Of a stretch of DNA of 64,000 bases, positions 3,253-55,818 are shown in pieces (position 1 is the first letter of the stretch; each line of letters starts with the position of its first letter). The stretch is taken from IMG/VR virus record IMGVR_UViG_3300031951_000034, positions 1 to 64,000 of that record; one strand, 5' to 3'. The notes below the pieces were generated by a model. It was not told where the DNA came from. It saw nothing but the letters and a program-made list of their open reading frames with translations, and made no database searches. This stretch comes from a virus. The position numbers were made by a program, and so were the translations under genes.

Positions 3253-3629
3253 AAACAAGAACCCTAAAATATATTTCAGATCAAAAATATTTCGTAGAGA
3301 TAAAAAATGAAGATTTCTCTGATGAAGACAATAAATTGATACAAAAATTTGGAGAGCCGGAAATAAATGTTGGTGGATTGTATGGAGAAGAGACTGTGCC
3401 TGGGGAAGCCCCAAGCCCAACAGCTGATTGGATACTCCCAAATAAATTTATTAAAGTCAAAAGAGGTTTTCAGCCATTTGTATGTTTTTTTGATAAAAGG
3501 TCCTTTACTGATGCGCAAACTAGAGCCAATTATCTAGCCGAGACGATTGTTACTAGAATACAATCTGCTATGTCTGTTCTCAGGTCCCAACAAGATTCAT
3601 ACACTAGTGAATCTGTAACAAATATTTAG
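3249..3629 (+). CDS. hypothetical virion protein
   Basis: 126-aa ORF overlapping the upstream stop (ATGA). Confidence 0.5.
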   Translation: MKTRTLKYISDQKYFVEIKNEDFSDEDNKLIQKFGEPEINVGGLYGEETVPGEAPSPTADWILPNKFIKVKRGFQPFVCFFDKRSFTDAQTRANYLAETIVTRIQSAMSVLRSQQDSYTSESVTNI

Positions 3630-4512: not shown

Positions 4513-5841
4513 ATGAGAAAATTAATTTTCAACGACTCGTTTGAGTATCCAGATGCGGAGTATCTGGTCAAAATAATTGATGACCCACAGAGAAGGGATA
4601 AAATAGCTTCGTCTGTTAGACATAGCTGGGGGGACATAGAGCCAATAAAAAATCACGCAATAATTCACTTAATTGCGCTTGGATCATTCGAAAAGACCGG
4701 AAGCAATTTAAACTTTGATGCTTTTGAGGAGGAGGTTTGTAAAAAATCTCATCCAACTTTCGTGAAGAAAGCTAAATTATACAGGCATCATAATAGTAAA
4801 GTCCCACATGAGCAGAGAGATGGAGACGTAATTAAATCTGCATACAATGAAAAAATGGGAAGAGTTGAGTTAGCTATTGCCGCTAATATAGACAAATGTG
4901 CTGACTGGCTTGGCAGAGTTGAAAGAGGTGGAGATGTTAAATTTTCTATGGGCTGGCATTGCGATAATGATGTTTGCTCTATATGCGGAAATGTAAGTAA
5001 AGCCCCGTCTGAATATTGCATTCACGTCAAGAAGGCCGCTCCACATCCATTTGGTAGAAATAAGATATTGTCAGATGGTAGAAAGTGTTTTGTATATAAC
5101 AGAGAGGGGTACTGGAACGACATATCATTTGTTGATCGTGGGGCAGACATGATAGCAATGGATTTAGCTAAAATCGCTGGGTTAGACCCAAGTGAGCCAA
5201 TGGGGGGAGCTGAACTAGCAGAGCTAATAGAAAATAGGATTTTATCTACACCCAAACTAGCTATAGCTGAAAAACTTTCTAAAATTCAAAAATACATAGA
5301 TGCAGTTGGCGTTAATGCTCCAAAAAATGTTTTAGACAAAACAGATCTATCTGAATCGGCAATAAGAGAATTACAGAAAAAAAATCCAAAAGATATGTTT
5401 GGTTGCTTATCAAAGAATGCATCAATTCTTCCTTTTAGGGTTTTTTATAAACTTGCTTCTGGATCTAGGTATAATGACTTTAAAAATTTAATAGACGAAA
5501 CAGAAGATGTAATAAGTGAGTGCATAAGACTTGAACTTAAAGAGGCTTCCAGTTTAGAGCAAATTGCATCTATCCATGACTTTGATTCATCTTGTAGTGG
5601 AAATATATCCATTACACAAAACACAAAAAACGAAATAAATAAATTTATCTTATCTTCAGAAGTTCAGGACGAAAAAATAAAAAAAGCAGTTCTTTACAAT
5701 GAGGAATTAAATGATAAAAAAACTTCTATAAAGCCAGAGTCTCGTGCTATGGTAAGACAATACCTAGCTTACAAGGTTGCTGCTTTAAATGATATATCCG
5801 CTAATGATGATGTAATATTCAATGCTTTTATGTTGAATTGA
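4513..5841 (+). CDS. prohead (maturation) protease
   Basis: Directly precedes scaffold and MCP. His in LYRHHN and Ser in KFSMGW, followed by a CSICGN...YCIH Zn-finger and ISFV. This layout fits HK97/herpes-fold phage prohead proteases. Confidence 0.7.
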   Translation: MRKLIFNDSFEYPDAEYLVKIIDDPQRRDKIASSVRHSWGDIEPIKNHAIIHLIALGSFEKTGSNLNFDAFEEEVCKKSHPTFVKKAKLYRHHNSKVPHEQRDGDVIKSAYNEKMGRVELAIAANIDKCADWLGRVERGGDVKFSMGWHCDNDVCSICGNVSKAPSEYCIHVKKAAPHPFGRNKILSDGRKCFVYNREGYWNDISFVDRGADMIAMDLAKIAGLDPSEPMGGAELAELIENRILSTPKLAIAEKLSKIQKYIDAVGVNAPKNVLDKTDLSESAIRELQKKNPKDMFGCLSKNASILPFRVFYKLASGSRYNDFKNLIDETEDVISECIRLELKEASSLEQIASIHDFDSSCSGNISITQNTKNEINKFILSSEVQDEKIKKAVLYNEELNDKKTSIKPESRAMVRQYLAYKVAALNDISANDDVIFNAFMLN

Positions 5842-53909: not shown

Positions 53910-54188
53910 ATGTATTTTCAGCTATCATTAAAAAACCTTTTTCAAACTAAAACTACTTACAAAAATATTTGCTCTATATTTAAGCAGGTCTCAAAAAATA
54001 AAAATATTGAGTTTGAGCTATTCTTCTTTAATGATTACACCTTTAAGGTAGAGCTAGACGCTAGTTTCATTACTGGAAGAGACCACGCTGGAGTATCTTT
54101 TGAATTAAATATTCTAGGAGCTTCTATTAATATTAATTTTTATGACTCAAGGCATTGGGACTACGAAAATAAAATCTGGGAAGAGTAA
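53910..54188 (+). CDS. hypothetical protein
   Basis: Start likely at 53910, 1 nt after the previous stop. Confidence 0.5.
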   Translation: MYFQLSLKNLFQTKTTYKNICSIFKQVSKNKNIEFELFFFNDYTFKVELDASFITGRDHAGVSFELNILGASININFYDSRHWDYENKIWEE

Positions 54189-54192
54189 AAAT

Positions 54193-54465
54193 ATGAATGA
54201 AACTGTAATACAAAAAATTACCGACTTAACCGACAAACTATACGAGTTAATTGGTCGGGACCACCACAAGGACCGAGACTGTCATTATTTTATAGAGACA
54301 AAGTGGAGCTACGGAAGACCACCGGTATATGTGATTGTACATAATGGATATATTTTTGATGACATCAGTGAAGAATGGGCTAGTTATGAATTGGCCTGTA
54401 TAAGGTTAAAAGAATTGCTGGAAAGACATGTAAAGTATTTAATGGAATTAGATACGGAACAATAG
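54193..54465 (+). CDS. hypothetical protein
   Basis: Start likely at 54193. Contains DHHKDRDCHY. Confidence 0.5.
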   Translation: MNETVIQKITDLTDKLYELIGRDHHKDRDCHYFIETKWSYGRPPVYVIVHNGYIFDDISEEWASYELACIRLKELLERHVKYLMELDTEQ

Positions 54466-54606
54466 GGGGGGTACCTCAAAAATATACATTTTTTGCCATA
54501 ATATAATGTAGATATCCTTTATCTATCTAATATATTGTGTAAGCCTTTGGTTTATTGGGTATATTTGTATTTATCATATTGTAGTTTAGTATTGATCATA
54601 AGTTGA

Positions 54607-54655
54607 TGGTTAAATCACGCCAATCCTCTTTGGATGGGGGATTGGCGTGAAACCA
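54607..54655. other. strong hairpin upstream of tRNA
   Basis: 12-bp perfect arms TCACGCCAATCC/GGATTGGCGTGA plus an outer TGGTT/AACCA pair. Confidence 0.7.
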
Positions 54656-54675
54656 ATTTTACAATAATTATTATT

Positions 54676-54748
<73 letters not shown>

Positions 54749-54810
54749 CTTTTTTGTGGTGCATACTTTTAGTGTAATAGTTAAAGCCTGATTTAATCTA
54801 TTAACACTAA

Positions 54811-54881
54811 ACTCGACTTGGCGAGTATAAACAGGTATCTAAGCCAAGTGCGGCAAACCATATGAGTATGGTTGCAATATC
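54811..54881 (+). ncRNA. pistol-class self-cleaving ribozyme (atypical cleavage junction)
   Basis: P1 ACTCG/CGAGT, loop ACTTGG pairing with CCAAGT (pseudoknot), ATAAACAG linker, CTAAG, GCG core, P3 GCAAACCATA/TATGGTTGC, P2 GGTAT/ATATC. Confidence 0.75.
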
Positions 54882-55018
54882 CCGATAGCAGCGTTTTGCT
54901 ATCGGCTAGTTGCCTCATTGAACGATAATGAGGTGAAACTGCATGGGAACGATCATCGTTCGATTAGAGCAGTGCAGTGGCTAGAAAAACCGGTGTTCCT
55001 ATACAGAGCTCTACCGGC
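54882..55018 (+). ncRNA. unknown structured RNA: hairpin + three-way junction with complementary loops + hairpin
   Basis: CCGATAGCA/TGCTATCGG, CTAGTT/GGCTAG closing stem, CCTCATT/AATGAGG with loop GAACGAT, ACTGCA/TGCAGT with inner loop ATCGTTC, CCGGT/ACCGG. Confidence 0.55.
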
Positions 55019-55043
55019 AATTTTCGTCGCCGACAGGCAAAAA

Positions 55044-55113
55044 AACCTCTAACCGAGGTCATAACTTTAACCCGTAAAATAGGGTTAAAGACATTGACTC
55101 TCGGTTAGAGGTT
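55044..55113. terminator. 70-nt long inverted repeat at a convergent junction (bidirectional terminator / processing hairpin)
   Basis: AACCTCTAACCGAG/CTCGGTTAGAGGTT (14 bp) + GTCA/TGAC + CTTTAACCC/GGGTTAAAG. Overlaps the stop codon of the minus-strand gene. Confidence 0.6.
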
Positions 55114-55818
55114 ATTTCCATATAGCGGATCGTTACGCTTTTTGTTAGCTACTGAGTTAATTTCGGACGACAGGTTGTTTACTATGTCCTCCAATTGATC
55201 TTCAGAGATCCATGGCAACATTTTGATTTGCTTAAACAGAAGAACGGACTGGTCTCTTATGTATTCATTTAAGAGTCCGGTAGCATAATCTGATTTTGAA
55301 TCCATTTGATTCATCTCTGCTCCGTATGTGCTGCCAAGATATTTCTCTGGCATTTTTGCAAAATGCAATTGAGGAGGAGGAGCAGTAAAGCCTTCCTGAT
55401 CTAGTACAACACCAACTAAAGAGGATATATCAGTTGAAAATAATTCAGAATCGTCATCGTCATTTAGAGAAACCTCTATTACGCCCCATGTAAATTCTGC
55501 AACGGTCATTTCTGCTAATTCGTCTGGATCATTTTCATTATTTAACACAGAGCATACTGCTGTGAACGCTACCCAGTCTTTATAGAAACTATTACTAGTA
55601 ATTGACGATATTATAGAGTGTAATCTATCAAGATTCTCTTCATCTATTTTTACGTCCAGTGTATCAGTAAGCTCCATCGCAAGAGTCTCTGGTTCCCATT
55701 CGTAAATGTCAGTACCAAAAAAATGAAGAGCTATTGCATGAGACACAGTAGCCATTGTACCAGGGGTAGCCATTATTCTTCCAGCTACTTCCTGGTCTTT
55801 TGTTTTGTATGGTAACAT
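55105..55818 (-). CDS. hypothetical head/packaging-module protein
   Basis: 237 aa, coupled (3 nt gap) to the upstream minus-strand gene. Confidence 0.55.
   Translation of the reverse strand: MLPYKTKDQEVAGRIMATPGTMATVSHAIALHFFGTDIYEWEPETLAMELTDTLDVKIDEENLDRLHSIISSITSNSFYKDWVAFTAVCSVLNNENDPDELAEMTVAEFTWGVIEVSLNDDDDSELFSTDISSLVGVVLDQEGFTAPPPQLHFAKMPEKYLGSTYGAEMNQMDSKSDYATGLLNEYIRDQSVLLFKQIKMLPWISEDQLEDIVNNLSSEINSVANKKRNDPLYGNNL

Follow-up and report, generated by a model that had tools for sequence, protein, structure and literature searches.

A pistol ribozyme with a predicted AA cleavage site ahead of a structured RNA in a freshwater phage

The locus

The window, by which we mean the whole 64,000-nt stretch of DNA analysed here, belongs to a 131-kb IMG/VR virus contig that is ~73% complete. 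The locus described below is flanked on one side by ORFs of the + strand, which end at 54465, and on the other by ORFs of the - strand, which end at 55105; no ORF of at least 50 aa is found between these two positions. The cassette in this gap runs, in order, hairpin, tRNA(CAU), spacer hairpin, pistol ribozyme, ~160-nt structured RNA and terminator hairpin:

54142-54465, + strand: 107-aa ORF immediately before the cassette
54607-54650: 12-bp hairpin before the tRNA
54676-54749, + strand: tRNA with a CAU anticodon (Met or Ile2), CCA not encoded (ARAGORN; Rfam tRNA model, 71.6 bits)
54770-54809, + strand: AT-rich spacer hairpin in the interval between tRNA and ribozyme (sequence)
54811-54881, + strand: pistol ribozyme
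54882-55040, + strand: structured non-coding RNA of ~160 nt, with a hairpin at 54882-54907 followed by a multi-branch domain (fold)
55041-55115, no strand assigned: long inverted repeat between the convergent units, with a terminator-like site on the - strand (fold)

The tRNA ends at 54749 and the pistol begins 62 nt later, the spacing originally described. Judged by its modelled fold, the inverted repeat at 55041-55115 is probably a bidirectional terminator. The 107-aa ORF is of a widespread phage protein family: viral contigs contain 173 relatives, and one of these shares its contig with another pistol (L075, see below). The ORF has no PHROG match, and no pistol lies near the relatives at the 80 loci (of 173) that were fetched. 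The region 54877-55125 is strongly folded (z = -9.3). The downstream RNA at 54882-55040 matches no Rfam family, viral contigs gave no match to a pattern made for it, and nhmmer against all fetched loci gave a single match, on the 174-kb metagenome contig L120. Another contig, L002, carries a protein with 72% aa identity to the downstream 237-aa gene, and has neither a tRNA nor a pistol at the corresponding position. L002 also has a weak match to the IMES-1 RNA motif at 5020-5201 on the - strand (34.3 bits against a gathering score of 81).

The DNA of this phage is found in many freshwater metagenomes. In addition, two metatranscriptomes from lakes supply contigs that tile 54555-54898, although these are assemblies and may contain DNA; there is no contig coverage of 54899-55112 in the same two sets. 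Contigs from the RNA libraries start at 54555 and 54606. At two further contig ends (54702 and 54833), a strain difference is found at a distance of exactly 30 nt, which marks them as ends of the assembly graph and not ends of RNA. No contig in the two metatranscriptomes bridges the predicted cut by at least 31 nt on both sides.

Identity of the ribozyme

Pistols are a class of self-cleaving ribozymes, with Weinberg 2015 reportedly among its sources; their cleavage depends on Mg2+ and gives 2',3'-cyclic phosphate and 5'-OH ends. The class is described in Harris 2015 (PMC4604425), and structures are available for env25 (5K7C) and for the A. putredinis pistol (6R47) (PMC6795133, PMC11300833). 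In the window, the Rfam Pistol model (RF02679) matches 54811-54876 with 44.5 bits in Infernal, clearly over the gathering score of 34.5, and the alignment spans model positions 1-68, the full length of the model. The E-value is 7e-5 when the 64-kb window is searched with all 4227 Rfam families, and 3.4e-8 when this family alone is searched against the 131-kb record, in which the locus is the sole pistol. The elements, all on the + strand, are:

54811-54826: P1 hairpin, ACUCG (54811-54815) with CGAGU (54822-54826), 5/5 bp (Rfam alignment, sequence)
54816-54821: P1 loop ACUUGG, complementary at 6/6 positions to CCAAGU at 54844-54849 (sequence)
54827-54833: A-rich linker AUAAACA (A-minor strand), fitting the Rfam consensus AUAAAuA
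54834-54838: 5' strand of P2, GGUAU, complementary to 54877-54881
54838: U29 equivalent (Rfam model position 28 = U29), pairing with A54877
54839-54843: active-site loop, with C54839 (extra; a 1-nt insertion in the Rfam alignment), U54840, A54841, A54842 (purine 32) and G54843 (G33)
54844-54849: 3' strand of the pseudoknot, CCAAGU (duplex of -6.0 kcal/mol)
54850-54852: equivalents of G40-C41-G42, with G40 the general base, aligned to the invariant GCG of Rfam
54853-54875: P3 hairpin of 9 bp, with A54857 bulged, loop UGAG and closing pair G54853-C54875 (-8.5 kcal/mol)
54876-54877: predicted cleavage dinucleotide AA, N-1 being A54876 and N+1 A54877 (energy, L075, natural variants, closing-pair association)
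54877-54881: 3' strand of P2, AUAUC, complementary to 54834-54838; predicted 5' end of the released RNA

P2 (GGTAT/ATATC in DNA letters) thus has 5 bp including one G-U, and the conserved core nucleotides A54829-31, A54842, G54843 and G54850-C54851-G54852 stand at invariant positions of the Rfam alignment. The original prediction had proposed a pistol fold from the letters of the window, and had listed P1 with its loop, the linker, G33, G40-C41-G42, P3 and P2. Each of these is found where it had been placed, and the covariance model, the core nucleotides and the pseudoknot, complete at 6/6 pairs, all bear the fold out.

With the rest of the class the window has in common P1, the 6-bp pseudoknot, the A-rich linker, P2, P3, G33, purine 32 and G40-C41-G42. 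It differs in four respects: AA replaces GU as the predicted cleavage dinucleotide, N+1 would be Watson-Crick paired with the U29 equivalent where the class has a U-U pair, C54839 is one additional nucleotide in the active-site loop, and the closing pair of P3 is G-C where the class has U-G. On its sequence, the element at 54811-54881 on the + strand truly belongs to the known pistol class and is carried by a large freshwater phage. It is a modest cut-site variant, not a novel kind of ribozyme, and it leaves knowledge of the class unchanged.

Related loci

Two other loci inform the reading of this element. L120 carries the same cassette as the window. Here, the 79 nt at 54804-54882 show 0 differences, as compared with 5 differences in the 61-nt spacer before the ribozyme, ~22 in 210 nt upstream of the tRNA and ~10 in 159 nt downstream of the ribozyme. 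Differences resume at 54883-54885, and the 3' strand of P2 (54877-54881) is unchanged. By our own estimate, the probability of zero changes in the 71-nt ribozyme is ~0.003 at a background of ~8%. The downstream structured RNA is conserved in L120. Within the cassette, tRNA(CAU) differs by one substitution, the spacer hairpin at 54770-54809 has two changes in the loop and one in the stem from A-U to G-U, and the first downstream hairpin has indels on both strands, with pairing kept by our reading. L120 also has a 20-nt insertion at 54606, just upstream of the 12-bp hairpin.

The second locus, L075, also passes the Rfam Pistol cut-off (40.9 bits). P1, its loop and the linker are identical in L075 and the window, and P2 and the inner part of P3 have different letters with the pairing kept. 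In L075, P3 is formed by GCAGGCUAU/AUAGCUUGC, then comes A, and then AUUC paired with GGAU, which is the same layout as in the window; at the DNA level this reads P3 GCAGGCTAT/ATAGCTTGC, A, and ATTC pairing with GGAT, with one unpaired nucleotide before TAGG. The junction is again without GU. The larger arrangement also repeats the order seen in the window, in that after the pistol come a structured RNA of ~190 nt (z = -3.9) and then an intrinsic terminator. It should be kept in mind that L075 and the window, with P1, its loop and the linker in common, may be one lineage and so non-independent examples.

The cleavage junction

In pistols the junction between P3 and P2 has a strictly conserved length of 2 nt, and the GU cleavage dinucleotide is merely "modestly conserved" (PMC4604425). 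In the crystal structures U54, the nucleotide 3' of the cut, pairs with U29 (PMC6795133, PMC11300833), and the guanine at N-1 touches O6 of G42 through its N2 amine (PMC6795133). The junction of the window had been described as non-canonical, being a single A. As drawn, A54876 is indeed the sole unpaired nucleotide between P3 and P2, and the junction is 2 nt when A54877 is counted as N+1. The non-canonical letters hold up, since both folding energy and comparison give AA and not GU in the favoured register, but the single-nucleotide length is probably only apparent, as the A54877-U54838 pair would stand in for the known U54-U29 contact.

Folding energies differ strongly between two of the possible registers. 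With P1, P2 and P3 formed and A54876 as the sole unpaired junction nucleotide, ViennaRNA gives -12.0 kcal/mol, while the register that places GU at 54871/54872, as in the Rfam alignment, reaches -2.3 to -2.6 kcal/mol, a cost of ~9.5 kcal/mol. The RNA is therefore expected to form the long P3 and the 5-bp P2. The scissile phosphate would then most likely lie between A54876 and A54877. In this arrangement A54876 would be unpaired directly after the closing pair G54853-C54875, A54877 would be held by a Watson-Crick pair to U54838 in place of the U-U pair of canonical pistols, and C54839 would be a one-nucleotide insertion in the loop, as the Rfam alignment also has it. With C54839 as an extra nucleotide and A54877 paired as N+1, the conserved 2-nt length would be kept, with the letters AA instead of GU. 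For the remainder of the active site, P1 would be stacked on the 6-bp pseudoknot with the A-rich linker in the minor groove of P1, G54850 (G40) would act as general base, and A54842 and G54843 (purine 32 and G33) would place the catalytic metal-bound water. Both catalytic activity of 54811-54881 and the exact cut site are what we infer from the sequence and its relatives.

Junctions of other phage pistols

A pattern scan of IMG/VR gave 117 stretches and a narrower scan gave 27; after requiring complementarity of P1 and of the pseudoknot, 83 distinct phage pistols were kept. The pattern fixes GUAUAAA, UARGCC and GCG, parsing was by a simple script, and the frequencies that follow are approximate. 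The census was confined to phage sequences: in bacterial genomes the broad pattern gave 5 real pistols in 120 stretches, nearly all the rest being chance matches. Canonical geometry parses for 70/83 pistols, and the following combinations recur among these 70:

N-1 G, N+1 U, position 29 U: 50
N-1 A, N+1 U, position 29 U: 6
N-1 G, N+1 C, position 29 C: 4
N-1 G, N+1 A, position 29 U: 2

GU is missing in ~16/83 pistols, about one in five, which have AU, GC, GA or AA. This bears on the claim that the window holds a new cleavage-site variant: the junction without GU is real in its letters, but with this many others among phage pistols it is not exceptional. Non-GU variation is frequent in these phage sequences and has already been acknowledged in the literature (PMC4604425).

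Among the loci of the census (L003-L130), N+1 covaries with position 29, with U-U in ~50 cases and C-C in 4 (L045, L078, L087 and L109), which agrees with the U29-U(+1) pair of the crystal structures (PMC6795133, PMC11300833). The closing pair of P3 alternates between U-G and C-A (L011, L073, L044 and L106), and a few pistols beyond the combinations listed above have GU with a P3 closed by C-A and not U-G. A is found at N-1 in at least six other phage pistols (L005, L038, L059, L078, L127 and L129), mostly after a G-C closing pair; for A at N-1 and closure of P3 by G-C, the association is 5/14 against 1/44 (Fisher p = 0.002, with no phylogenetic correction). The window carries exactly this signature, G54853-C54875 and then A. 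Additional nucleotides in the active-site loop, like C54839, are also present in L101, L021 and L015 of the phage pistol sample.

Two near-isogenic pairs display such changes. L096 and L121 have one difference in ~270 nt, a change of N+1 from U to A opposite U29, and both are well over the Rfam cut-off (66.3 bits for L096 and 63.0 bits for L121). In a similar case, L097 and L127, also both over the cut-off, are identical through G42, after which P3 is wholly re-paired and N-1 changes from G to A, L097 being the one with GU. That pistols with A at N-1 are active is suggested by this natural recurrence, and it should be added that A is without the amine that touches O6 of G42.

Competing explanations

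Taken as a whole, the locus is best explained by a functional-looking pistol that cuts between A54876 and A54877 and frees the structured RNA downstream, and we consider this explanation somewhat probable. Among the alternatives, the one that survives best is that the element is an inactive relic or a purely structural module, in which the fold has been retained and cleavage was lost together with the GU site; the suggestion of a repurposed structural module had been made at the outset. Both letters of the cleavage site do depart from the consensus, and one RNA-library contig (54804-54898) crosses the site, though by just 22 nt. However, the catalytic and scaffold nucleotides are all intact, and decay is not expected to spare G40-C41-G42, G33 and the letters of the linker. 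Each of the junction substitutions recurs in pistols that otherwise follow the consensus, including the near-isogenic pairs described above. Furthermore, the ribozyme is unchanged in L120 amid flanks that have diverged by ~8%, which speaks against a decaying relic. The repurposed module is thus unsupported, and we regard loss of activity in general as unlikely.

A slightly less likely possibility is a shifted register, in which the cut falls between C54875 and A54876, G54853 is unpaired after G42, and C54839 becomes position 29, facing A54876. In its favour, the junction would again measure 2 nt (CA), and G33 would be preceded by the usual 4-nt loop, C-U-A-A, so that the 5' side needs no inserted nucleotide. 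It would, however, require N-1 either to sit in a sound G-C closing pair or to be pulled from it, and the signature of G...C followed by A is the one found in five other pistols where A is clearly N-1. The combination of position 29 and N+1 would also become C-A in the window and G-A in L075, which fits no pattern found in the other pistols.

The register of the Rfam alignment itself, with a cut between G54871 and U54872, is a little less probable again and in our view improbable. This calls for a short or mismatched P3, for a P2 reduced to 3 bp (GUA/UGC) and for pairing of U54838 with U54872. In its support, cmscan aligns GU with model positions 63-64 and U54838 with that of U29, and both consensus letters would be retained. 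On the other hand, 5/9 pairs of P3 would have to melt, leaving up to 6 unpaired nt between G42 and P3, at the energetic cost given above; the aligned P3 has two mismatches, with posterior probabilities of 0.4-0.5. L075 shares this architecture but carries no GU where this register would place it, and its inner P3 and its P2 have changed letters and still pair; this speaks against the register.

Hammerhead ribozymes have the core letters GAAA after the pseudoknot. The pseudoknot-containing hammerhead is identical to the pistol in topology, and reads CUGAUGA in the loop that joins the helix equivalent to P2 with the pseudoknot (PMC11300833). That the window is such a hammerhead is very improbable: it shares the helices, the pseudoknot and the connectivity (PMC11300833), but has the short loop of pistols (CUAAG) in place of CUGAUGA and GCG in place of GAAA, and no hammerhead model matched at E <= 10.

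Proposed role and significance

For the preferred cut between A54876 and A54877, the position of the site within the ribozyme suggests a role. Pistols cut near their own 3' edge, so this one would trim what follows and not what precedes it. Cleavage would leave the tRNA, its trailer and the body of the ribozyme with a 2',3'-cyclic phosphate, and would free the downstream structured RNA (~160-165 nt), which would begin with a 5'-OH and have AUAUC as its 5-nt leader. Position 54877 is our best estimate from the sequence for the start of the 5'-OH product. The usual enzymes would form the ends of the tRNA. Freeing the structured RNA downstream is thus the most likely function suggested by this arrangement; co-transcription with the tRNA, and a part in maturing the downstream RNA, are also what we infer for the ribozyme.

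Theta ribozymes abut the 3' end of a tRNA and have their cleavage site at the ribozyme's 5' edge, so that the cut gives the tRNA its 3' end. Like the pistol of the window, these HDV-like ribozymes (PMC10879173) are small, on the same strand as a phage tRNA gene and close to it, but they differ in fold. The window pistol starts 62 nt past the tRNA, is predicted to cut near its own 3' edge and would not form the tRNA 3' end. No HDV-family match was found in 54400-55200 at E <= 10.

More tentatively, pistols cut between A and A (and also those cut between A and U or between G and A) could be a natural active sub-type, in which A at N-1 is linked to closure of P3 by a G-C pair, and N+1 is a nucleotide that can be held by a Watson-Crick pair; in the window this sub-type would make the 5'-OH end of an undescribed RNA of ~160 nt. 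We hold this wider proposal to be possible, at somewhat less than even chances. If true, such a sub-type would loosen the supposed requirement for GU and give more target sites for engineered pistols. The census bears on the same need for GU in engineered pistols, by way of the covariation of N+1 with position 29, the occurrence of A at N-1 with a G-C pair, and the one in five pistols without GU. For the question of what pistols do in nature, the locus adds a further clean and testable case, with a pistol directly before a short, strongly folded and terminator-ended ncRNA in an RNA cassette of a phage.

Surroundings of phage pistols

A pistol beside a tRNA had been thought unusual for a phage. 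It is uncommon but not unique, as 7/78 phage pistols, the one in the window counted, have a tRNA on the same strand within ~800 nt. Among these 78, about half lie tightly between two same-strand ORFs, and ~45% precede more than 150 nt without an ORF. The pistol of L059 (11548-11599, + strand) lies inside an array of more than 25 tRNAs plus a tmRNA, and that of L072 (11178-11245, - strand) is ~30 nt upstream of tRNA-Arg, tRNA-Gly and tRNA-Asp. On the - strand of both L097 and L127, a T-arm-like sequence, GGTTCGAATCC / GGTTCAAGTCC, stands ~130 nt downstream of the pistols in a conserved region; ARAGORN calls no tRNA there, and the sequence may be a tRNA-like element. L038 has two type II hammerhead ribozymes on the + strand (1903-1976 and 2207-2281), with a pistol that has an AU junction at 3269-3328, 1-1.3 kb downstream of them.

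It is also worth describing L040, which was considered as an independent case of a one-nucleotide junction and set aside as suggestive only, since its relative L085 loses homology at the junction and is without the 3' strand of P2. L040 (- strand, ~1212-1273) and L085 (+ strand, ~1691-1752) are near-identical through P3, and their homology ends exactly at the border between P3 and the junction. The alignment of the two suggests that a mosaic breakpoint falls at the ribozyme's cut site.
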